Assembly (NCBI GenBank): GCA_965197405.1
Contig: OZ240206.1
Coordinates: 2,251,096-2,315,095 of the forward strand
Reading direction: 5' to 3'
DNA length: 64,000 bases
DNA from: Dehalococcoidia bacterium
Lineage (GTDB): Bacteria > Chloroflexota > Dehalococcoidia > Lucifugimonadales > JAGWBF01
The notes below the pieces were generated by a model. That model did not search any database. It saw nothing but the letters and a program-made list of their open reading frames with translations, and was not told the DNA's origin. Of this stretch, positions 4,680-46,336 are shown piece after piece. Every line of letters begins with the position of its first letter. Position 1 is the first letter of the stretch. The translations under genes and the position numbers were made by a program.

Positions 4680-5674
4680 TGGGTCACAACCTCGCTATTG
4701 CCTTCGCCTTCAATAGACGGATAAGGCTGTTCTTTTCTTTCCAGTCTCGACTGTATGATAGCAGGGCTGAGGAGAAATGCCACCGAGGCAAGGGTGATGA
4801 GTATCACGGAAAGAAGGCTAAAGCCGAATGGGATAGCCACTATGGTGAACACCACCAGCACGGCTGTGGAGCCTGTGAGCAGAGCGACCTTCAGGAGCCT
4901 GTGCCGGGCTTTCATAAAAACGCCGGTGGTCACCGCGAGGGCTAAGAACACCAGCGCTCTATCCGCATCAGCCGCCTTGACTTCAGCCGCATTGGCCGCC
5001 CAGAAACCGTCGCCGCGCCAATTGAGCAACAGCGCCCAGGAGGTCAGGAAGGGGAAGGGCAGCGCGGTGAGGGATGCCAGGAGCCAGTCCTGTCGCACTA
5101 CCTTGACGATTACATTGGCCATTATCCACAGGGAGAAGGGAATATAGGCTATGATGAGCAGGTATATGGGGAAGCTGAAGGGCAAGGCCCCCGTGGTGAA
5201 GTACGTCCACGCGCCATAGCCGAGGGCTCCCAGGGCCATAACCCAGGAGAGGGCGGGCGCCGCCATCGAGTACCCCAGCCAGGTGTAGGTCCACTTGGGC
5301 CTCCCGGACTTCCAGGCCCTGAGGGCGATGAAGGTGACGGCGATTATCAGCACTATCACCAGGAAGTACCGGGTCCAGAGGTGCAGGGCGAAGAGGGATG
5401 CGAGAAGAAGGTGGGGCAGCGCGGCCAGGAATATGTCTCGCCAGGAACCGACGCTATGCACCGAGTACATACTCTTGGCAACCAGGTCGGGATGCCCCAT
5501 GTCGCGCACGGCCTGGGAGAGGGCCTCATCGCGGGTTAGGCCTTCTTCCTCCAGGTCGTGGGTCTTTTCCTCAAGGTGGCCCTGAAGCTCGAGGGCTATC
5601 TCTCGGTTCGTGTTGGGATCGAGTTTGAGCTTCCTCGTCAAAGCCTGGAGGTAGCTCTGAAGCTCTCCATCCAC
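4658..5674 (-). CDS. polytopic membrane protein with N-terminal cytoplasmic helical domain (PadR-associated sensor/anchor type)
   Basis: An N-terminal ~75 aa soluble helical region is followed by at least 6 hydrophobic helices. It lies 21 nt downstream of the PadR gene and overlaps the DegV start by 22 nt. Confidence 0.55.
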   Translation of the reverse strand: MDGELQSYLQALTRKLKLDPNTNREIALELQGHLEEKTHDLEEEGLTRDEALSQAVRDMGHPDLVAKSMYSVHSVGSWRDIFLAALPHLLLASLFALHLWTRYFLVIVLIIAVTFIALRAWKSGRPKWTYTWLGYSMAAPALSWVMALGALGYGAWTYFTTGALPFSFPIYLLIIAYIPFSLWIMANVIVKVVRQDWLLASLTALPFPFLTSWALLLNWRGDGFWAANAAEVKAADADRALVFLALAVTTGVFMKARHRLLKVALLTGSTAVLVVFTIVAIPFGFSLLSVILITLASVAFLLSPAIIQSRLERKEQPYPSIEGEGNSEVVTHWFTSAR

Positions 5675-5695
5675 CGGGTTCTCCTTAACGGGGGT

Positions 5696-6028
5696 CTAGG
5701 GCGCGGGGGCCGGCATTATGGAGTTGACGGCCCTGGCGAAACGTTGCCATTCACTCAGACGTTCCTCCAGCACCTTCTGCCCTTTGGCCGTGATGTGGTA
5801 GTAACGCCGTGGGACGCTCGAGGCCTCATCTCCCCATTTCCCCTCCACCAGCCCCGCCTTCTCCAGCCGGTGCAGGGCGGGATAAAGGGTCCCCTCCTTG
5901 AACTGGAAGTACCCACTACTGCGCTTCTCCATCTCCTTGACTATCCTGTACCCATACATAGCTTCGCCGACCAGCAGCGAGAGGAGGAGGGTCTCGGTAT
6001 TTCCCTTCAGTAGCTCTTTGTGGTACAT
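5696..6028 (-). CDS. PadR family transcriptional regulator
   Basis: 110 aa winged-helix protein: LLLSLLVGEAMYGYRIVKEM...GTLYPALHRLEKAGLVEG. Confidence 0.85.
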   Translation of the reverse strand: MYHKELLKGNTETLLLSLLVGEAMYGYRIVKEMEKRSSGYFQFKEGTLYPALHRLEKAGLVEGKWGDEASSVPRRYYHITAKGQKVLEERLSEWQRFARAVNSIMPAPAP

Positions 6029-6061
6029 GATTTGAAATTACCCCTGAATGCTTGGTGAGAT

Positions 6062-6089
6062 TTTATAACGTGCAGCCGTGGGCGGTCAA
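6062..6089 (-). promoter_or_regulatory. sigma70-type promoter candidate for the padR operon
   Basis: On the minus strand: TTGACC (6089-6084), 16 nt spacer, TATAAA (6067-6062), about 35 nt upstream of the padR ATG. Confidence 0.4.
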
Positions 6090-6132
6090 GTTTGGGAATC
6101 AGATTATCAGATTTGCCAAGTCCTTTTCGAAG

Positions 6133-6743
6133 TTAGGGACGGTTGTAATCGGTCGTGTCAGCGACAGCATCATAGTCCGTCTTGCTCAACCAATGGCACC
6201 AGATATTGGAACCCAACAGGGATAGGCGGCGGTTGTTGCTGGGACTGCGCCAAGCGGCTACTTCAGCATAACGCATATTGGGATACCGTCGGTGCACGAA
6301 CTCAAGCGCTGGCAGGATGTCGGTATCCGTGGACATAATCACGCCGACGTCATAAGCAGCTTCAACGGCCAGGGTTACGAAGTCTATTGCCAGCGCAACG
6401 TCAACACCCTTTTCCTGAGCGCTTTGCTGGGGCCAGCTCGGCGGGTAGCGGAGCGGGCGATTACCTGCGCCCCGTCTGCCTCCCATCTGGCGCATTGTTT
6501 CATATGGGCGTCGTAAGTGATGAGAGCCTTTATCGGGTCGGGACGTCCAGTATAAACGCGGACGCCAGCCAGGACATACGCTGCTCCACCGGGGCCGCCT
6601 CTGGCTACAATAAGTTCCCCGAGCTTCATGGGGTCAAATTGGCCGTCAACACCGGAATAGCCGCCGGCGAAAAAGCTATCCCGGGCCCCTCTGTAGGTGT
6701 TCTGCGCGTCAATGAAAAGCACGAGTTTCCGAGGAGGCGTCAT
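6133..6743 (-). pseudogene. NYN/LabA-like domain gene split by a frameshift
   Basis: ORF 6384-6743 carries the N-terminal half (LVLFIDAQNTYRGARD...). ORF 6133-6495, in another frame, carries the C-terminal half (..EKGVDVALAIDFVTLAVEAAYDVGVIMSTDTDILPA..). The frames meet near 6445-6455 in a CGCCCGC run. Confidence 0.6.
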
Positions 6744-14167: not shown

Positions 14168-14562
14168 CGTCACTCCCGCGAAAGCGCGAGTCCACCGCAG
14201 GGATTGGTGGACTCCTGCTTCCCCAGGAATTGCGGGTAGGACTGGTTTAGATATTTGCTCACGCGTCAGTAATTCTTGACTCTAGGCTAATACAGGCCCC
14301 GGAGCGTGTCATTCCGAACGGAGCCCTTCGACAAGCTCAGGATAAACTCCGCGACGAGGAATCTAGGGCGTGTTCACATAAAGGAGCGCAGGGCGTCCGA
14401 AATGCCCGCGTCATGTCATTCCGAATGTAGTGAGGAATCTAAAGAGCCTCTTCACGATCATGGCGCCATTCAGGCGACGGACACACGTAGCATTGCCAGG
14501 CCCGCTTTATGGACATGGACTTTAGATTCCTCAGTCGCTTCGCTCTTTCGGAATGACATTGT
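14168..14562. repeat. composite repeat region including a ~257-bp unit duplicated at 57292-57549
   Basis: 14170-14196 is GTCACTCCCGCGAAAGCGCGAGTCCAC. 14306-14562 is bounded by inverted GTCATTCCGAA... modules and is about 90% identical by eye to 57292-57549. Confidence 0.85.
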
Positions 14563-14863
14563 GGGTAGGGGGGACGAGGAAGGAACACGCCTTAATTCCA
14601 TCGCCCTGCTCAAGAAGACAGGGCCTTTTCAGGGTCCGATGGCAGGTGGAGAATATGGCGGCCGGTTGGGAGATACTCATCCGGAGTTGTTGGGCCTGCC
14701 GGGACTGAGTCGCAGTCCCTTCGTGGCCGCACTGTCTAGGCTGCTGCGGATGGTGCTGGTGTCTGGAGTGCGCCAGGCCCTGATGAGGTTCTCGGAGCAA
14801 CTCGCTGGGTTGCGCGGTTGTGGAGTTGAAGTGGCTGCTCCGCCGGTGCTCAGGAGACCATGC

Positions 14864-15316
14864 TCAGGCGCTCTTCCGGTCCCTCTTTTCCTCCATCGTC
14901 TTCTTTATAAACCCCACGATGTCTTGCGTGGATACGCCCGGGCCGAATATCGCCGTTATACCCGCCTGGAGCAGGGGTTCCCGGTCCTCCTCCGGTATGA
15001 TCCCTCCCGCCACCACCGTCACATCATCCATGCCCTTCTCCCGGAGGCCTCGCATTATTTCGGGGAAAATCTCCAGATGCGCGCCGGAGAGTATGCTGAG
15101 CCCTATCACGTCCACGTCTTCCTGGGCCGAGGCCTCCACGATCATCTGTGGGGTCTGGCGTATCCCCGTGTAAATGACCTCCATCCCCGCGTCCCTGAGC
15201 GCTCTCGCCACCACCTTCGCCCCCCGGTCATGGCCGTCGAGCCCGGGTTTGGCTACAAGCACCCGTATTGTGGTGTTTTGCTGTGCCATAGAATGACCAC
15301 CTCTTAGATTCCTCAC
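14864..15316 (-). CDS. methylmalonyl-CoA mutase, cobalamin-binding small subunit
   Basis: B12-binding DxHxxG motif ([12 protein letters not shown]). The probable true start is ATG 15289 (MAQQNTT.., SD AAGAGGTGG). The first 9 ORF-track codons are repeat sequence. Confidence 0.85.
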
Positions 15317-19170: not shown

Positions 19171-20208
19171 GTGCAGACGCCAGACGTATCCCAATGGGGT
19201 GAGGCTGACTGGGGGATCAAAGTGCCTCTGGCCGACGGGCAGGGCTTGCGCCTGGACAACGCCCTCATAGGCAGCTATGGCGAGGTCCCGGATGAAGCCC
19301 TTGCCAGTCACGGGATGTCGCCCCGGGGCGCGGTGGCCGAACCCAACACGCCCGACTTCGGATTTCGCATAACCCGCAAGATAGACTGCTGGGCCGACGA
19401 CGTGCCGGAGCTTTACGAGCGGGCCAAGGCCGAGCAATGGGACGCTACCAGGGACATTCCCTGGCACAAGCTACCCGAACTCCATGAAGACCTGGAGCGG
19501 GCGGTGTGCCAGATAATGACCTTCCTGGTGGAGAACGAGTACGTTGCCCTCTATCTCCCCTCGAAGTTCATCTCACGCATAGACCCCCACTACACCGAGG
19601 TGTCCCTTCTCCTGGCGACCCAGGTCAAGGATGAGGCCCGCCATATCGAGGTCTACACCAAACGGGCGCTGGCAAATGGCGGCGGCCTCCAGTACGTGTC
19701 GGCCTCCACCCAGTGGGCCTTGAAGAGCCTCATCACCCAGGAGAACTACGTCAAGGCGTCTTTCCTCCTCCATGTCCTGGGAGAGGGGACGTTTCTCGAC
19801 ATGCTCAAGTTCATCGAGGATATAGCGCCCGACCCGGTCACCAGGGAAATCCTGGTCCGCACCCGCCAGGACGAGGCGAGGCACGTGGGCTACGGCGTCT
19901 CCCATGTCCGGTATCTGCTGCGAGAGGACCCCAGCCTGGGTGAAGAGTTGCTGGAGGCGGCTGAAGAGCGGGCCTCCTTCCTGCGGGCGACTTCTGGCGC
20001 CAACCCGTTCCTCCAGCGGTCGCTGGCCACCCTTGCGGGCGGTGGCGGCCAGGACGAGCAGCTGGAGCGAGGGGCGGAGAGGGTGAGAGAGTTCTACAAG
20101 AAGATGCACGAGACCCGGATTCACCGGCTGACGCTGGCGGGTCTGGACGAGCGCACGGCGCGAAAGATCGCCGAGCTTCATGGCGGCGGCGGCAAAGCCT
20201 ATATGTAG
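19171..20208 (+). CDS. ferritin-like di-iron carboxylate protein, function unknown
   Basis: Two E...ExxH pairs (VENEY..DEARHIEVY and LGEGT..DEARHVGYG). The start codon (GTG) is uncertain. Confidence 0.6.
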   Translation: MQTPDVSQWGEADWGIKVPLADGQGLRLDNALIGSYGEVPDEALASHGMSPRGAVAEPNTPDFGFRITRKIDCWADDVPELYERAKAEQWDATRDIPWHKLPELHEDLERAVCQIMTFLVENEYVALYLPSKFISRIDPHYTEVSLLLATQVKDEARHIEVYTKRALANGGGLQYVSASTQWALKSLITQENYVKASFLLHVLGEGTFLDMLKFIEDIAPDPVTREILVRTRQDEARHVGYGVSHVRYLLREDPSLGEELLEAAEERASFLRATSGANPFLQRSLATLAGGGGQDEQLERGAERVREFYKKMHETRIHRLTLAGLDERTARKIAELHGGGGKAYM

Positions 20209-36145: not shown

Positions 36146-37249
36146 ATGGTTGCGACAGTAGACTTCCAAGCCAACACCGACGGACTTGTGGAAAAGGATA
36201 GCTGGTGCGCCGTCCTTGAACGAGATGCTCGCTTTGACGGGAAGTTCGTATATGCCGTTCGCTCCACGCGCGTTTACTGCAAGCCCTCGTGTCCAAGCCG
36301 GCGGCCGGACCGTAAGCAGGTGGCCTTCTTCTCGATGCCCGAGGCGGCAGAGCAGGCGGGTTTCCGCCCTTGCCGCCGCTGCCGTCCCCAGCTACACCCT
36401 TCCCACGATCCCCAGATAGAGATGGTGCGCCGGGTCTGCCAGCACATCAGAAACAATTCCAGGGACAACTCCGAAAGCTTCCCGACTCTGCCCCGGCTGA
36501 GCGCCGGCGTGGGTGTCAGCCCATACCATCTTCAGCGTACGTTCAAGCGGCTGATGGGTATTACACCGCGACAGTACGCCGACGCCTGCCGATTGGGAAC
36601 ACTCAAAGTCAACCTCAAGAACGGGAGAAGTGTGACCGACGCCCTCTATGAGGCTGGATATGGCTCCAGCAGTCGCCTTTATGAGCACTCGTCGGCCCAG
36701 CTTGGCATGACGCCAGCCGCCTACAGACGCGGCGGACCGAGCCTCCATATTGCATATACGTTTGCGGACAGTGCCCTGGGCCTTCTTCTGGTGGCGGCTA
36801 CCCAGCAAGGCGTATGCTCCGTTAGCCTCGGAGATGATGAGATGGCCCTGGAGGAAGCCCTGCGACGCGAGTATATGGCCTCGGAAGTCCGACGGGAAGA
36901 CACGGTCCTGAAAGAGTGGGTGGAAGCCATCCTCCACCACCTCTCCGGGCGGCTCCCCCACCTGGACCTGCCATTGGACATCCGGGCTACCGCCTTCGAA
37001 AGGCTGGTCTGGGAGCAACTCAAGCGCATCCCCTATGGCGAGACGCGCTCTTACGGCGAGATCGGCGCAGCTCTGGGCCGGCCCAAAGCGGCGCGGGCCG
37101 TTGCCAGGGCGTGCGGGGCAAACCCTGTCGCATTGTTGATTCCCTGCCACAGGGCTATCCGCAAAGACGGGAGCGCGGGTGGCTACCGGTGGGGCGCTGC
37201 CCGTAAGGAGGCTTTATTGGCTCGAGAGCGGACTTTGGCAGTAGTGTAA
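36146..37249 (+). CDS. ada: bifunctional Ada: methylphosphotriester-sensing AraC-type activator plus O6-methylguanine-DNA methyltransferase
   Basis: N-terminal Cys4 Zn site (FVYAVRSTRVYCKPSCPSRRP..PCRRC), a central HTH (YHLQRTFK), and the C-terminal active site IPCHRAI. Confidence 0.85.
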   Translation: MVATVDFQANTDGLVEKDSWCAVLERDARFDGKFVYAVRSTRVYCKPSCPSRRPDRKQVAFFSMPEAAEQAGFRPCRRCRPQLHPSHDPQIEMVRRVCQHIRNNSRDNSESFPTLPRLSAGVGVSPYHLQRTFKRLMGITPRQYADACRLGTLKVNLKNGRSVTDALYEAGYGSSSRLYEHSSAQLGMTPAAYRRGGPSLHIAYTFADSALGLLLVAATQQGVCSVSLGDDEMALEEALRREYMASEVRREDTVLKEWVEAILHHLSGRLPHLDLPLDIRATAFERLVWEQLKRIPYGETRSYGEIGAALGRPKAARAVARACGANPVALLIPCHRAIRKDGSAGGYRWGAARKEALLARERTLAVV

Positions 37250-38997: not shown

Positions 38998-39891
38998 TTA
39001 GCTAATATTCAGGCGGTCGTATTGGGAGTCCGTTGATGAGGACGAGAAAGGAGGCCTCGGAGGACCGCCTCTCCGGGCATCGGTGAGATTCTCTTCCACT
39101 TTCGGGGAAGCAGCCTGGTCCAATGCCATCCCGCAGGACCTGCAGAGTTTCCAGGCTCCTTCGTTGTCCGCCATGCAATGGGGACAAGCCTTCCGTACCA
39201 CCCTTGACTCTCTGACCAGCCCCCTGCCCAGAGGAGGTTGATTGTTGTTAGGGTCGAACTTAATCTCGAAGAACCGGTTTACCAGCCTATGCACATCTTC
39301 GCCGGCCCTGGCGCTTTTGTATGGAAAGGAGAGCTCGTAGCTGCCTCCTTGGAATGTGACGTTGCCCTCCGTCTCCCAGAAGAAGTGCTTGGCTATAAAA
39401 AACACTCCTATGAATATGATCGCGGCCCCCAACGCTGAGGCTATGGTTATCCCGTCCAGGATGTAGCCCACTATGAAGTACGCAAGGATGCCTACAAGTA
39501 TCAGCGCCAAGCCCTGGGATAGGTTCTTGACGCCCCTCGTGCTCGACTTCACCGACACCGCCTTCAAGTCCTCCACCGAGGCAAGCAACATCTCCTTGTT
39601 GCCATTGCTCGCAGCAAAGGACATTATCCGGCGGTTCGTGAGCACCATCAACTGGCCCTTCTGCGGAGTATTCGCCACTAGGCCGTCATAGGGCACAAAC
39701 CGCTCTTCTATCCGCTCTCCCTCGAGGAGCGGGAGCTCCCTTATGGAGTATTGGTCTGTCGTCGTCTGTTGTTGCCGGTAAAGCATTCCCTTATCGCTAA
39801 TGCCGGTCCTGGAGTCCCGTTGTGAAGCCCTGAAGGGCCACAGGCTAATGGGGGCCGGACGCCTCAGAATTGGAACGTCGGACATTGCCAA
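38998..39891 (-). CDS. hypothetical membrane protein with C-terminal zinc ribbon
   Basis: 297 aa. Two central hydrophobic helices and CPHC..x11..CRSC near the C-terminus. Lies 18 nt upstream of argS. No family recognised. Confidence 0.5.
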   Translation of the reverse strand: MAMSDVPILRRPAPISLWPFRASQRDSRTGISDKGMLYRQQQTTTDQYSIRELPLLEGERIEERFVPYDGLVANTPQKGQLMVLTNRRIMSFAASNGNKEMLLASVEDLKAVSVKSSTRGVKNLSQGLALILVGILAYFIVGYILDGITIASALGAAIIFIGVFFIAKHFFWETEGNVTFQGGSYELSFPYKSARAGEDVHRLVNRFFEIKFDPNNNQPPLGRGLVRESRVVRKACPHCMADNEGAWKLCRSCGMALDQAASPKVEENLTDARRGGPPRPPFSSSSTDSQYDRLNIS

Positions 39892-40148: not shown

Positions 40149-40165
40149 AGAAAGGAGCATTCCTG

Positions 40166-41653
40166 ATGGCCACAAAGAGGTCCTTTGTAGGTAACGTCAA
40201 CGCGCCCGACTTTCCGGTCGGTCTCGACTGGGTGAATACGGATAGGCCCCTCAGCCTTCAAGACCTGCGGGGCAAGCTGGTTATCCTCGACTTCTGGACC
40301 TACTGTTGAGTCAACTGTATGCACGTATTTCCGCAGTTGCGGGAACTGGAGCACAAATACAGGGACGAGCTTGTCGTGATAGGGGTGCACTCGGCTAAGT
40401 TCACCTCGGAGCGGGACACGGATAACCTTCGCAAGGCCGTGCTGCGCTATGAGCTGGAGCACCCGGTGATAAACGACGGCGAGTTCAACGTCTGGAAGCA
40501 GTACTACTGCCGCGCCTGGCCCACGCTGATATTCATAGACCCCCATGGCAAGATTATAGGGAAGCACGAGGGAGAGATTACCTTCGAGGACTTTGACCCC
40601 CTCATTCAGCAGATGGTGGAGGAGTTCGACGAGCAGGGCATGGTTGACCGCGCCCCTTTGGACTACAAGGTGGAGGAAGAGAGAAAGTCGCTGCTATCCT
40701 TCCCCGGTAAGCTGCTGGCCGACGAGACTTCGGGCAGGCTGTTCATATCGGACTCCAATCACAATCGCATCATAGTCGCCACGCTGGACGGAGAAATCCG
40801 GCAGACCATCGGCAGCGGAGAGATAGGCCTGGAGGATGGCGACTTCCGGAGCGCCCGGTTCGATCACCCCCAGGGCATGGCGCTGGACGGGGATGTGCTT
40901 TACATAGCCGACACCGAGAATCACGCGATCCGCAGGGCAGACCTGGCCCGTGGGACGGTGGAGACGGTGGCGGGCACGGGGCAGCAGGCCAGGGCGCACC
41001 GCCAGGGCGGCGAGGCCTCCTCCTCGGACCTCAGCTCTCCCTGGGACCTGACGCTGTACGACGGGACCCTCTACATAGCGATGGCCGGTATCCACCAGCT
41101 CTGGGCACTGGACTTGAAGGAGAAACAGGTGCGCCCATACGCGGGCAATGGGCGGGAGGCCCCGGTGGACGGGCCCCTGCTCTCGGCGTCCCTGGACCAG
41201 CCAAGCGGCATAACCACCGACGGGCAGAAGCTCTACTTCGCCGACAGCGAGGCCAGCGCCATCCGTTCCGCCGACCTCAGAGGGGACGGGCGCGTCAGCA
41301 CGATAGTGGGCCTTGATCTCTTCGTCTTTGGCGACGTTGACGGCACGGGGGACGCGGTCCGTCTGCAACACCCCCTGGCGGTACACTTTCACGACGGCGT
41401 CCTCTACGTGGCTGATACCTACAACAACAAGGTCAAGCGGCTATTCCCCCAGACCAGAAGCGTCCTTACCTTTGTCGGCGACGGCCAGCCGGGCTACGAG
41501 GACGGCGATGGGAGCCAGGCCCTCTTTCACGAGCCGGGCGACGTCAGCATAGCCGCCGGCAAGGCGTACATAGCGGACACCAACAACCACGCGGTGAGGG
41601 TGGCGGACCTGGATACGGGGGAGGTAAGCACCCTGGAGCTCAAGGGGCTGTAG
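40166..41653 (+). CDS. thioredoxin-like (UxxC) plus NHL-repeat beta-propeller protein; in-frame TGA 40307-40309 proposed as selenocysteine
   Basis: ATG 40166 sits behind AAAGGAG (40151-40157). 47 open codons encode the Trx-fold start ..[25 protein letters not shown]. Downstream are NHL repeats ([46 protein letters not shown]). The ORF track calls only 40319-41653. Confidence 0.65.
40310..40345 (+). promoter_or_regulatory. candidate bacterial SECIS hairpin(s) immediately 3' of the UGA
   Basis: Two mutually exclusive stems are possible. One is CAACUG (40312-17) with CAGUUG (40334-39). The other is UUUCCGC (40328-34) with GCGGGAA (40339-45), closing an AGUU loop. Confidence 0.35.
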
Positions 41654-41678
41654 GCGAAGATTCGAGTAGCAAGATAGG

Positions 41679-42932
41679 ATGAGTGGAGTGAACAACGGCC
41701 AGCCAGCCCCATTGTCCCCGGAAGAGGCGCTGCAAGCCCTCATCCGCGACCAGGACTTGGAACGCTTGGAAGACCTGCTCGCCGAATTCAATCTGTTCGA
41801 CGTACTGGGCATCGCGCGACGCGAACTCCAGCATTCGGCGCTCCTCGCGTGGCTTCTTGACCCTCGTGGCTCCCACGGGCTGCGGGACTACTTTCTTCGT
41901 AGATTTCTCTCAGAAGCAGCGGCGGAGGCGAGCGAACGGGGAATCGCGGACGTTACACCGCTCGACGTGGACGGCTGGAAGCTCAGCGACATCGAGGTCG
42001 CGACCGAGCGCCATAACATGGATATCATGCTCATAGACGAGGCCGATGAGTTCGTCTGCCTCATAGAGAACAAGATTGGGGCCGGAGAGCACTCCGGTCA
42101 ACTCAGCCGCTATCTGAAGAAGGTCGAAAGCGAGTACGAAGGTCTCACGCCGTTCCCAATATTCCTGACGCCGGATGCTATGGAGCCGGAAGCTGAGGAT
42201 GATGTCGAACGCTACGTCACCCTCGACTATGGTAAGGTCGCTGACCTCGTCAATCGGACGCTAGAGACGCGACGCTCGACCATCAGCGCCAGCGTTGCCG
42301 GCTTCTTGGAGCAGTACGTCCGTACCTTGCGGAGGCATGTGTTGGACAACGCCGATAACATTGACGAGTTGGCTCTGCGGATATACAACAACCATCAGGC
42401 TGCCATTGACCTCATCATCAACGCCAAGCCGGCCCTGGAGGCCAAGGGCTGGGATGTCATCGAAGCCGCGATAGCAAGCTACGCGCCTGGCCTGCAGTAC
42501 AAAGCCCACAGCAAGTCACTTCGCCAATTCTTTTCCCTCTCCCTGGACGAGGTGCCACAGTTAAAGCAGGACCACATGGTTACGTTCGATTTTCGGCGCG
42601 ACAGTGGTATGACACTTCACCTATATGTGCAACCGGGTCCGGAGGAAGTACGCGAGAGCCTCCTCCAACTCGCTCGGAATACCAAGCCCTTTCATGTGGC
42701 AAGGAAGTCTAGTAAGAAGTATAGCAGGATATATCGAAAGCCCATCCTCAGCCAACAGGACTACAACCCGTTTGATCCTGATGAAGCCAGGCCAAAGGTA
42801 GAGAAGGCCATTGACGAGTTCTACGACAACGACTACTGGACGATAGTGAATGCCATACGCGGGGAGTTTGGCTTGTCTGCCACTTCTCGCCCGGGCGCCC
42901 GGGCCCATCACCCACTGTATGAACGGCTCTGA
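41679..42932 (+). CDS. PD-(D/E)XK nuclease superfamily protein (orphan)
   Basis: N-terminal FNLFDVLGIARRELQHSALLAWLLDPRGSHG block and the D..(E)xK core MDIMLID-x9-LIENK (about 42021-42074). 417 aa. Confidence 0.65.
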   Translation: MSGVNNGQPAPLSPEEALQALIRDQDLERLEDLLAEFNLFDVLGIARRELQHSALLAWLLDPRGSHGLRDYFLRRFLSEAAAEASERGIADVTPLDVDGWKLSDIEVATERHNMDIMLIDEADEFVCLIENKIGAGEHSGQLSRYLKKVESEYEGLTPFPIFLTPDAMEPEAEDDVERYVTLDYGKVADLVNRTLETRRSTISASVAGFLEQYVRTLRRHVLDNADNIDELALRIYNNHQAAIDLIINAKPALEAKGWDVIEAAIASYAPGLQYKAHSKSLRQFFSLSLDEVPQLKQDHMVTFDFRRDSGMTLHLYVQPGPEEVRESLLQLARNTKPFHVARKSSKKYSRIYRKPILSQQDYNPFDPDEARPKVEKAIDEFYDNDYWTIVNAIRGEFGLSATSRPGARAHHPLYERL

Positions 42933-42950
42933 TTTGGATAACAAGCAGGG

Positions 42951-44144
42951 TCACAGCCCGGACCGCTTCGCCGCTGCCGCGAACCCCTCCATAGCCCCTT
43001 CCAGGACCCGGTCCTCCAGGCAGTAGGAGATGCGGAAGTAGCCCGGCGAGCCGAATCCCCGGCCCGGCACGGCGAGCACGTTGTATTCCTGTAGCTCTTC
43101 CACGAAGGCCACGTCGTCTTCCACGGGCGACTTGGGAAACATGTAGAAAGCGCCCCGGGGCTTGAATGTGGAGTAACCCATCTCTGTGAGCTGGCCGTAA
43201 AGATAGTCTCTCTTGCGCTGGTAGTCCCCCACGTCCACGCTGACGCCCTGGAGCGCGCGAACGGCGTGCTGCATCAGCGCCGGCGCGTTCACGAACCCCA
43301 GGATGCGGTTGCAGAACGTGAGGCCGTCCACAAGTTCCGCGCTCGCCTCATACGCCGGGTTCACGGCTATGTAGCCAATGCGCTCCCCCGGCAGGGCCAG
43401 GTCCTTGGCGTGGGAGTAGACGACCAGTGAGGCTTCATAGTGGGGAAAGACCTGGGGGTAGGTGAGGCCGTCGTAGATAATCCGGCGATACGGCTCGTCG
43501 CTTACGAGGAATATCTCCGTCCCGTACTGCGCCCCTTTCCGGCGCAGCAGTTCCCCCATAGCCTCAAGCCGCTCCGGGCTGTAGACCGCCCCCGAGGGGT
43601 TGTTGGGGGAGTTAATCAGCACGGCTTTGGTGCGCGGCGTTATCAGCCCCTCCAGTGCGCCGAGGTCCGGCTGGAAGCCCTCGTCGGTGGGGGCGATTAC
43701 CGGGACGCCCCCGTGGTTGTCGGTATAGTAGCCGTACTCCACGAAATAGGGGGCGAAGAACACCACTTCCTCCCCCGGATTGAGAATGGTCTTCAGGACC
43801 ACGTTGAGGGCCGCCGCCGCGCCGCAGGTCATGACGATCTCCCCCGTGCTGAAAGGGATGCCCGTCTCCTCCGCCAGCCCGGCTGCGACAGCCTCCCTCG
43901 TTTCGCGATAGCCGGCGTTGGGCATATACCGGTGCATACCCCTGATGGGGTCCTGGGCCAGCCTCCTGAGCTCCTGGTGGAACTCGGGTGGGGGCTCGAC
44001 TACAGGATTGCCCAGGGAGAGGTCGAAGACCTTGTCTTCGCCATACTGCTGCTTCAGGGCAATGCCGGCCTCAAACATGCGGCGAATCCATCCCCCTTCT
44101 TCCACGAAACGCTTTACTTTCTCTGATACCGCCATTTTCGCCAC
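42951..44144 (-). CDS. class I/II PLP-dependent aminotransferase (aspartate/alanine type)
   Basis: 397 aa with LINSPNNPSG and the YSHAKDLALPGERIGY (PLP-Lys region) motif. Confidence 0.85.
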   Translation of the reverse strand: MAKMAVSEKVKRFVEEGGWIRRMFEAGIALKQQYGEDKVFDLSLGNPVVEPPPEFHQELRRLAQDPIRGMHRYMPNAGYRETREAVAAGLAEETGIPFSTGEIVMTCGAAAALNVVLKTILNPGEEVVFFAPYFVEYGYYTDNHGGVPVIAPTDEGFQPDLGALEGLITPRTKAVLINSPNNPSGAVYSPERLEAMGELLRRKGAQYGTEIFLVSDEPYRRIIYDGLTYPQVFPHYEASLVVYSHAKDLALPGERIGYIAVNPAYEASAELVDGLTFCNRILGFVNAPALMQHAVRALQGVSVDVGDYQRKRDYLYGQLTEMGYSTFKPRGAFYMFPKSPVEDDVAFVEELQEYNVLAVPGRGFGSPGYFRISYCLEDRVLEGAMEGFAAAAKRSGL

Positions 44145-45377: not shown

Positions 45378-45413
45378 GTATCGTTCATAGATTGTCAGAT
45401 GAAGGGCTATCTA

Positions 45414-45845
45414 TCAGCCCGCAGTCACTGACCCCGGCTCGGTCAGGGGTTGCAGTATGTCCAGGACAGTCTCTATCTGATCAAGTCCTCTACCAATGGC
45501 GTCGGGGCGCAAGAGCATCTTGCGGGTGTAAAAGAACCCGTGCAGTGTGTTAGCAACGTGCCACAGGCCGGGCAGTCGGGCATCGGGAGACAGGTCTTCG
45601 GCTTGGTACATCACTTTGAAAAACTCGTCGTGGGCCTTATATTGCCAGTCCTGGGCTTCCGCGACGGCCTTGGCCATCCAGGCAGCGGCGCCCCAACCCT
45701 TTTCCGACGCCTGGTGCAAGTCGCCATCGGCCAGGTACTCCCGCGCCTTGGCTAGGAAAACCCTGGACTGCCGACGGTAGTCGGCCACGGCGTTGCCATC
45801 CTGCTCATACGGTTCCATTGTGGACATTTGACTCATCCGGTGCAT
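45414..45845 (-). CDS. helical protein, PaREP1/HEPN-like by motif memory (paralog 1)
   Basis: About 140 aa with AREYLADGDLHQASEKGWGAAAW and LHGFFY motifs. Start is ATG 45836 or 45845. Confidence 0.5.
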   Translation of the reverse strand: MHRMSQMSTMEPYEQDGNAVADYRRQSRVFLAKAREYLADGDLHQASEKGWGAAAWMAKAVAEAQDWQYKAHDEFFKVMYQAEDLSPDARLPGLWHVANTLHGFFYTRKMLLRPDAIGRGLDQIETVLDILQPLTEPGSVTAG

Positions 45846-45902
45846 CCTCTCCCTGATGTGGGAAGCTAAACACCTCCACCTGTCAGATAAAGGGGCTATC
45901 TA

Positions 45903-46325
45903 TCAGCCCGCAGCCACTGACCCCGGCTCGGTCAGGGGTTGCAGTATGTCCAGCAGGACCTCGACTTTATCAAGGTCTTGACCGATGGCATCTGGGATCA
46001 GGAACATCTTGCGGGTGTAGAAGAACCCGTGCAGTGCGTTCGCGACATACCCCAGATCATGCACTCTGGCATCACGCGACAGGTTTTCGGCTTGGTACAT
46101 CACCCTGAAAAACTCTTCGTGAGCTTTGTATCGCCAGCCTTGGGCTTCCGCGACGGCCTTGGCTATCCAGGCAGCCGCGCCCCAACCCTTTTCCGACGCC
46201 TGATGCAAGTCGCCATCGGCCAGGTACTCCCGCGCCTTGGCTAGGAAAACCCTGGACTGCCGACGGTAGTCGGCTACGGCGTTGCCATCCTGCTCATACG
46301 GTTCCATTGTGGACATTTGACTCAT
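45903..46325 (-). CDS. helical protein, PaREP1/HEPN-like by motif memory (paralog 2)
   Basis: 140 aa. The first 53 aa are identical to paralog 1. Start chosen at MSQMSTM (46325); the ORF-track extension to 46424 overlaps the upstream gene. Confidence 0.5.
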   Translation of the reverse strand: MSQMSTMEPYEQDGNAVADYRRQSRVFLAKAREYLADGDLHQASEKGWGAAAWIAKAVAEAQGWRYKAHEEFFRVMYQAENLSRDARVHDLGYVANALHGFFYTRKMFLIPDAIGQDLDKVEVLLDILQPLTEPGSVAAG

Positions 46326-46336
46326 CCAAGCTATCC

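Follow-up and report, generated by a model that had tools for sequence, protein, structure and literature searches.

The subject of this report is a gene in a stretch of 64,000 nucleotides from a Dehalococcoidia bacterium (assembly GCA_965197405.1, contig OZ240206.1, positions 2,251,096 to 2,315,095), which is referred to below as the window. The gene occupies positions 40166-41653 of the window and is, with high confidence, a genuine selenoprotein gene of the NHLRC2/SOQ1 family, in which the UGA at codon 48 would be read as selenocysteine (Sec). A first-pass annotation of the same DNA had proposed a candidate selenoprotein composed of a thioredoxin-like domain and an NHL propeller, and this proposal is supported by homologues, by a downstream hairpin, and by coding evidence upstream of the TGA. 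The parts of the gene are as follows.

40166..41653, forward strand: complete predicted selenoprotein gene, 495 codons including Sec48, with stop codon TAG at 41651-41653 (from translation, Pfam and structure alignments)
40151..40157, forward strand: Shine-Dalgarno-like motif AAAGGAG, read in the sequence, with an 8-nt spacer to the start codon
40166-40168, forward strand: start codon ATG, opening 47 sense codons before the TGA
40166..40306, forward strand: the 47 N-terminal codons absent from the annotation, covering the start of the thioredoxin-like domain through active-site Cys47
40304..40318, forward strand: active-site motif C47-U48-V49-N50-C51 (TGT TGA GTC AAC TGT), the equivalent of the family motif CC(I/V)NC
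40307..40309, forward strand: UGA predicted to be decoded as Sec48 (TGA in 55 of 55 stop-type genes, TGC or TGT in 25 Cys-type genes)
40319..40321, forward strand: ATG of Met52, which ORF and gene callers mistake for the start codon (ORF list, database entries, assembly L083)
40328..40345, forward strand: predicted selenocysteine insertion sequence (SECIS) hairpin UUUCCGC-AGUU-GCGGGAA, with arms at 40328-40334 and 40339-40345 and the loop at 40335-40338
40202..40615, forward strand: thioredoxin-like (TlpA / Thioredoxin_8-type) domain, residues ~13-150 (Pfam; structures of DipZ, ResA and TlpA type match residues 12-153)
40688..41647, forward strand: NHL-repeat beta-propeller, residues ~175-494 (Pfam NHL and TEN_NHL; structures 7DJM and 6G7W match residues 175-494)

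Coding sequence on both sides of the TGA

In the ORF listing, the gene is represented by a 444-amino-acid ORF from ATG 40319. As the first-pass annotation had stated, the same frame is open for 47 codons further back to ATG 40166, and TGA 40307-40309 is its sole interruption; after the TGA, the frame stays open to TAG 41651-41653, giving a read-through product of 495 residues. The AAAGGAG motif reported before ATG 40166 is also present, with a spacer of 8 nt and not the 9 nt given there. The extra codons had been described as the start of a thioredoxin fold with the TGA at the nucleophile of the CxxC motif, and this agrees both with the alignment to SOQ1 described below and with the Pfam matches on the read-through protein, where the thioredoxin-like models PF00578 (AhpC-TSA, residues 13-130), PF13905 (Thioredoxin_8, 36-130) and PF08534 (Redoxin, 24-138) span the TGA and NHL repeats occupy the C-terminal two thirds. 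Since these thioredoxin-like models start well upstream of the TGA, a 444-residue product would miss the first strands of the fold and the first residue of the CxxC. No hydrophobic signal segment is evident at the N-terminus, judged by eye only, and the protein is thus probably cytoplasmic.

The position of the TGA was compared across 80 loci from species-representative genomes, in which the DNA was read directly, together with the window. In 54 of these loci, all labelled Dehalococcoidia, SAR202 or Chloroflexi, a stop falls exactly at the position of the window TGA, within DFWTYC*[VI]NC (the asterisk marking the stop). With the window included, the codon is TGA in all 55 stop-type genes, and TAA or TAG is never found. 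The 25 other loci covering the position read TGC or TGT and come from Planctomycetota, Acidobacteriota, Armatimonadota, Binatia and Anaerolineae-type metagenome-assembled genomes (MAGs). Their motif is DFWTYCCINC in 22 and DFWTYGCINC in 3, so that Cys aligns with the TGA in the homologues, as it also does in the SOQ1 structure; the motif F(W/F)TYCCINC, which the first-pass annotation had given for NHLRC2-type relatives, is correct according to solved structures. Metagenome contigs of many projects, at least 119 in number, share this TGA. It also occurs, with the same hairpin, in a strain of 98.6% identity that was assembled independently (locus L083, ENA ERZ25067183), where the gene caller likewise split the gene into ORFs of 47 and 444 amino acids.

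The codons before the TGA evolve as the rest of the gene does. The ratio of nonsynonymous to synonymous substitution rates (dN/dS) is 0.227 in the 44 codons upstream versus 0.225 downstream, and the entropies of the three codon positions are 0.61/0.37/1.34 bit upstream versus 0.57/0.40/1.20 bit downstream. Across the Sec-type genes of 54 species, these 44 codons retain 57-89% protein identity. An ATG is found 46-47 codons before the U codon in 47 of 55 genes, and a Shine-Dalgarno-like motif lies at -18 to -4 of the upstream start in 40 of 54 Sec-type genes, as opposed to none of 55 before the annotated Met. In 10 of the 55 genes, the annotated Met cannot be the start because the codon there is GCC, CTG, GTC or ATT.

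A protein search gives the impression of a shorter gene. Nearly all of the approximately 55 closest relatives (66-100% identity) are called at 444 amino acids, with 90% query coverage, and the more distant relatives (60-66% identity) reach 97-100%. Homologues that start at the Met equivalent to 40319 are therefore real as annotation, but represent an artefact, as all of them have conserved coding DNA upstream; tblastn and PDB alignments of homologues begin at residues 1-12 and thus include the 47-codon N-terminus. All the Sec-form protein entries examined are cut to 444 residues and have lost their own active site, a loss that extends to at least 54 species and to many metagenome contigs. The protein scores below the cut-off of every NCBIfam model (ResA 64.1 bits versus 170, StoA 35.8 versus 210, TlpA 25.6 versus 230), which accounts for the uniformity of the truncation in databases, and no NCBIfam model exists to rescue the annotation of the Sec forms.

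The terminators of the Sec-type genes themselves are TAG in 26, TAA in 16 and TGA in 12 species. TGA is also the ordinary terminator of other genes in the window, indicating that UGA is not reassigned genome-wide. It can be seen that the frame runs on unbroken through the TGA, conserved before and after it, and that homologues carry Cys at the aligned position, two properties by which selenoprotein genes are recognized. Exclusive use of TGA, a predicted SelB-type hairpin and Cys in relatives together constitute the accepted computational signature of a selenoprotein gene. A thioredoxin-like UxxC with exchange of Sec and Cys at the redox nucleophile is moreover a known pattern (Table 1, PMC13188914).

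A hairpin associated with the UGA

Published criteria for a bacterial SECIS (bSECIS) are a loop of 3-9 nt, a stem of 4-16 bp, a distance of 16-37 nt from UGA to loop, and a minimum free energy of -7.5 kcal/mol or lower (PMC13188914, Fig. 2 legend), with a G at loop position 1 or 2 that G or U usually follows (PMC13188914). The hairpin at 40328-40345 passes every one of them: it has 7 bp, a 4-nt AGUU loop with G at position 2 followed by U, and a folding energy of -8.5 kcal/mol, its stem starting 18 nt and its loop 25 nt after the UGA. Of the two hairpins that the first-pass annotation had placed after the UGA, this 7-bp AGUU stem is confirmed and occurs only together with the TGA. The more proximal one was rejected, as it is not conserved and the codons there vary freely at synonymous sites. 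An extended fold in the window is no better than shuffled sequence (z = -1.15). Searches of Rfam at gathering and relaxed thresholds gave no match at the hairpin to any family, SECIS or other.

The AGUU-loop hairpin is present in all 55 TGA genes, with 7 of 7 pairs in 54 and 6 of 7 in one (median -8.8 kcal/mol), and in none of the 25 Cys genes, where 1-5 pairs form in that register (median 0.0 kcal/mol). The encoded peptide is FPQLRK in TGA genes versus LPDLKK-like in Cys genes. The mean synonymous entropy of the six hairpin codons is 0.087 bit versus 1.12 bit (minimum 0.38) at 66 other conserved degenerate codons, and all 54 sequences have the same CCG, CAG, TTG and CGG codons despite the six-fold degeneracy of Leu and Arg. 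Synonymous sites are free to vary in the stretch from the UGA to the 7-bp hairpin. At position 40342 of the window and its equivalent in L083, the 3' arm has G for A, so that an AAA codon (Lys) becomes GAA (Glu) and a U-A pair becomes U-G with pairing kept.

Within the genome set, the hairpin is so nearly invariant that structure and primary sequence are inseparable, and covariation was for this reason sought in metagenome contigs. At least 120 contigs were obtained by scanning with the DNA motif of the active site alone, leaving the hairpin unspecified. Overall, 130 of 162 distinct Sec-type sequences carry a hairpin in the same register, including the stem variants CUUCCGC/GCGGAAG, CUCCCGC/GCGGGAG, CUGCCGC/GCGGCAG and CUCGCGC/GCGCGAG. 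A set of 81 distinct 30-mers was tested, preselected for 6 or more of the 7 pairs in this register, a choice that raises the paired percentage. Pairing is found in 98.2% of its cells versus 90.9 ± 0.5% in shuffles and 35-70% in slid registers. In the same set, two-sided, compensatory changes are found at 5 of 7 pairs versus 1.5 ± 0.7 in shuffles, and such substitutions are not themselves generated by the preselection. On every covariation measure, none of 500 shuffles matches the observed value. Judged by its nucleotide-level conservation and compensatory changes, the hairpin is constrained as RNA.

The NHLRC2/SOQ1 family and its probable Sec forms

The best solved relative of the protein is the lumenal region of Arabidopsis SOQ1 (7DJJ, E=1e-129, query residues 12-494), and human NHLRC2 (6GC1, E=3.5e-109, query residues 10-491) is likewise among the best matches; both alignments are collinear and full-length. 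The SOQ1 segment DFWTYCCINCMH aligns residue for residue with the query, placing U on the second Cys of CCINC. In the literature the CxxC pair is C431/C434 for SOQ1 and C90/C93 for NHLRC2; taken with the alignment, this puts Sec48 at the N-terminal CxxC residue, which is Cys431 in SOQ1 and Cys90 in NHLRC2. A TlpA / Thioredoxin_8-type domain is directly followed by an NHL propeller, and the family motif CC(I/V)NC is found at the CxxC as C-U-V-N-C. The C-terminal beta-stranded or DsbD-N-like domain is absent from the Sec forms; the NHLRC2 authors describe this domain as non-conserved, and so it is not strictly family-defining. The plant SOQ1 architecture, with an N-terminal HAD domain and a transmembrane helix, is also absent, as the gene starts 12 residues before the thioredoxin-like domain.

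Human NHLRC2 shares the domain order found here, a thioredoxin-like domain and then a six-bladed NHL propeller. Its CxxC lies at the N-terminus of a helix, in a cleft between the domains that faces the propeller, and the Sec falls on Cys90 of C89-C90-I-N-C93. The human protein differs in having Cys at the nucleophile and, at the C-terminus, a domain of beta-strands, neither of which applies to the Sec form; the protein described here is also bacterial, with no evident signal peptide. For SOQ1, the Sec position belongs to a pair required for function, since the single mutants C431S and C434S lose function, and C431 was proposed as the residue exchanging with the C-terminal domain (bioRxiv 10.1101/2021.03.16.435614). 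According to a 2024 preprint (10.1101/2024.11.01.621559), this pair is redox-active and hands electrons on to the C-terminal domain, and methionine sulfoxide reductase activity is shown by the lumenal region. That activity was measured on a construct of thioredoxin-like, NHL and C-terminal domains, in which the last takes electrons from the first, whereas the Sec forms possess none of the HAD domain, transmembrane helix and DsbD-like C-terminal domain of SOQ1. The closest stand-alone thioredoxin-like structure is that of Mycobacterium tuberculosis DipZ (2HYX, 5CYY; E=7e-22, residues 12-153), with the related motif SCINC; DipZ differs in lacking an NHL propeller, in having Cys and not Sec, and in being part of a membrane DsbD-type electron transporter.

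All Sec forms lack the C-terminal (DsbD-N-like) domain of approximately 150 residues that is present in most Cys forms (loci L001-L080). They end 447-462 residues after U, versus 580-637 after Cys in most Cys forms. The link between Sec and the missing domain is not exclusive, because the Cys forms L032 and L033 are also without it. The only conserved feature around the gene is a convergent aminotransferase, shared by the 7 closest loci, and a lack of conserved neighbours was likewise noted for bacterial NHLRC2 homologues; the neighbourhood therefore offers no operon-based clue to function.

On the 80 genome loci, the Sec forms make up one clade. A wider neighbor-joining tree, which also took in metagenome sequences, was rooted on Cys forms from Planctomycetota and covered 169 sequences and 241 aligned residues. 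In this tree, the main Sec clade contains 124 sequences, nearly all with the canonical hairpin, and is sister to Anaerolineae-type GCINC forms. A Sec clade of 11 (…FPDLVRLE…; e.g. L177, L099, L147) adjoins Phycisphaerae-type Cys forms, and another of 8 (…LPELEALE…; e.g. L156, L110, L095) adjoins a third Cys group. None of 30 bootstrap replicates unites all the Sec forms. The minor clades have other candidate hairpins, such as CCGGAGCU-GGA-AGCUCUGG (8 bp, -10.9 kcal/mol) and CCGACCU-GGUC-AGGUUGG (7 bp, -8.3 kcal/mol). A single origin of Sec, which the genome loci had suggested, was rejected once metagenome diversity was added. As the Sec clades are separate, stand next to different Cys lineages and carry different hairpins, Cys and Sec appear, provisionally and on neighbor-joining trees from a short alignment, to have been exchanged at this one residue on at least 3 occasions, a different SECIS accompanying each exchange. 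Three hairpin designs downstream of one codon would represent a case of SECIS turnover.

The course of events that we infer follows the canonical bacterial mechanism. When the ribosome reaches the UGA, the 7-bp AGUU hairpin, 18 nt downstream, would recruit SelB-GTP with Sec-tRNA(Sec), which would outcompete release factor 2. Sec48 would then be the N-terminal, attacking residue of the CxxC centre C47-U48-V-N-C51. Its selenolate would probably attack an oxidized substrate held by the propeller, after which a selenenylsulfide would form with Cys51 (or the vicinal Cys47), to be re-reduced by a reductant of the thioredoxin type. An oxidized protein, for example one with methionine sulfoxide, may be the substrate if SOQ1 is taken as a guide.

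The mechanism of recoding is that of a canonical bacterial selenoprotein gene of the commonest kind, with a thioredoxin fold and UxxC. The new element seems to be the family, NHLRC2/SOQ1, which is set apart from generic catalogue entries by description. Table 1 of a 2026 review lists 119 selenoprotein families and subfamilies, none of them described as NHL, NHLRC2 or SOQ1-like (PMC13188914). Neither NHL nor propeller occurs as a word in the text of BSepDB or in the Sargasso Sea, GOS, Peng 2016, deep-Sep and 2022 review papers. A literature search on NHLRC2 and selenocysteine found incidental co-mention only, and one on SAR202 and selenoprotein found nothing. The catalogued thioredoxin-like UxxC families (cd02966 'thiol-disulfide isomerase-like', PF08534 'redoxin family' and PF00578 'Prx-like') share with this gene the thioredoxin fold, UxxC, Cys-containing homologues and a SECIS hairpin just downstream within the coding sequence. 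They differ in that no NHL propeller, NHLRC2 or SOQ1 is mentioned for them, a distinction made by their descriptions, through which their representatives (MGB1650493.1, HEU0032618.1, WP_010940744.1) are known here, and not by sequence comparison. The broader proposal, that an abundant and previously unrecognized Sec form of NHLRC2/SOQ1 exists in Dehalococcoidia/SAR202 and at least two other lineages, with at least three origins at one residue, is put forward tentatively, as a possibility of somewhat less than even weight.

In humans NHLRC2 is essential and its mutation leads to fatal FINCA disease; in plants SOQ1 controls a pathway of photoprotection. Recurrent natural replacement of Cys by Sec at one residue is a classic indicator of a catalytic redox centre. 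If the proposal is true, the N-terminal CxxC cysteine (NHLRC2 Cys90, SOQ1 Cys431) would have been marked repeatedly by nature as the catalytic redox nucleophile, contradicting the published inference that NHLRC2 performs no thiol-based redox chemistry. The small Sec enzymes, being without the C-terminal domain, would also provide a minimal model for the substrate of the family, such as oxidized methionine in proteins, and could serve as more reactive natural variants for substrate trapping. A widespread gene would in addition be added to the large selenoproteomes of Dehalococcoidia/SAR202.

Selenocysteine machinery, alternative explanations and neighbouring genes

Several observations weigh against the selenoprotein assignment or the chemistry proposed for it, besides the near-invariance of the hairpin among genomes and the preselection of the covariation set described above. 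ARAGORN and tblastn with E. coli SelA, SelB and SelD found no selA, selB, selD or tRNA-Sec in the 64-kb window, and the same searches of the 80 genome loci and at least 120 metagenome loci (~1.3 Mb) found only a selD on contig L191. A scan of the window for TGA-joined ORF pairs with redox motifs found no other selenoprotein gene; the pairs that turned up there and in the flanks of Sec-type loci were rejected as frame-shadow noise only. Human NHLRC2 was inactive in an insulin-reduction assay, from which its authors inferred that it does not carry out thiol-disulfide exchange. The activity of SOQ1 needs the C-terminal domain that the Sec forms here lack, and the substrate chemistry suggested above draws on SOQ1 preprints.

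The marine-metagenome contig L191 (UPTF01000132.1) carries a Sec-type gene of the main clade, with selD starting 4.6 kb away (5622-6668, minus strand; TIGR00476, 393.9 bits, cut-off 125). This selD itself has an in-frame TGA at 6618-6620, residue 17 (SHCAG-U-AAK), at the catalytic UxxK position, a motif listed for Sec-containing SelD (PMC13188914), and a hairpin of 8 bp with a GGU loop 19 nt after the UGA. Its combination of UGA and hairpin follows the same recoding logic as the NHLRC2-like gene on the contig; it differs in fold and function, which are unrelated, and in the GGU-loop 8-bp hairpin, which is of unrelated sequence. The ORF listing shortens this selD to 326 amino acids. A weak 'SelB' match at the end of L191 was rejected, being EF-Tu. 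BSepDB, which accepts a species as a Sec user only with at least two Sec-pathway genes, counts Dehalococcoidia bacterium UBA1141 among such users, with 49 selenoprotein genes, and gives 46 for another Dehalococcoidia MAG (PMC13326102). UBA1141 is the genome of a locus in the comparative set (L028, DCAE01000079.1:17294-24760) that carries the same TGA.

The gene might be split or truncated, with TGA 40307 a real stop, the product being the 444 residues from ATG 40319, and the 47-codon ORF a remnant or a separate peptide. The 444-residue calls of the closest database proteins fit this explanation, as does the 47-residue ORF called separately in one assembly, but such a product would be without its first beta-strands and without its active-site nucleophile. 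The upstream codons are moreover under purifying selection equal to that on the rest of the gene, no gene has a Shine-Dalgarno-like motif before Met52, ten have a non-start codon there, and a plain terminator would not need to be always TGA and never TAA or TAG. The chance that the gene is split or truncated is accordingly very slight. Even slighter, and close to negligible, is the chance of a pseudogene or of a sequencing or assembly error concealing TGT or TGC. One base change would turn either codon into TGA and the window comes from a metagenome-type assembly, but the same TGA is found in the genomes of 54 other species, in the independent assembly of the same species and in the metagenome contigs, and the frame is intact with dN/dS of about 0.23 on both sides. 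Conservation of the TGA, the intact frame, the upstream start and the independent assembly are the grounds on which error, pseudogene and split gene are set aside.

Recoding of the UGA to a residue other than Sec (Cys, Trp or another), through a suppressor tRNA or a SelB-type factor with non-Sec cargo, would satisfy the sequence evidence, in that this evidence proves recoding and not the identity of the inserted residue, and no Sec machinery was found in the 64-kb window. This explanation is nevertheless considered improbable. The position is that of a redox nucleophile, at which exchange between Sec and Cys is the pattern known (Table 1, PMC13188914); the hairpin fits the SelB-type bSECIS model; the related contig L191 encodes a SelD that is itself a UGA-containing selenoprotein; and UBA1141, with an orthologous gene, is a documented Sec user (PMC13326102). 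Insertion of Cys would also give no reason to keep a costly UGA and hairpin in place of TGY across deep divergence. Reading of UGA-48 as Sec is thus the explanation preferred here.

Several other features of the window were recorded. The immediate upstream neighbour of the selenoprotein gene, also present in L083, is an ORF of 297 amino acids at 38998-39891 (minus strand); this ORF and those of 345 and 333 amino acids at 19171-20208 and 14306-15307 (both forward strand) have no significant Pfam or NCBIfam match. At 36146-37249 (forward strand) lies an Ada-type fusion of an Ada zinc-binding domain, an AraC helix-turn-helix domain and an O6-methylguanine-DNA methyltransferase, with no in-frame TGA; the methyltransferase family includes known Sec forms (PMC13188914). 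Between the selenoprotein gene and the convergent aminotransferase sits a segment of about 1.3 kb (41655-42968) with a PD-(D/E)XK nuclease gene (ORF 41679-42932, forward strand; Pfam PDDEXK_4, E=2.5e-30). L083 has 78 nt at this site, and in L001, L006 and L009 the aminotransferase directly adjoins the Sec-type gene. The segment is a strain-specific insertion beginning right after the stop codon. Finally, two tandem PaREP1-family genes, approximately 88% identical in DNA, lie at ~45390-46330 (minus strand) in the window and at 13858-14769 in L083, where they were seen as cross-matches between the two sequences.

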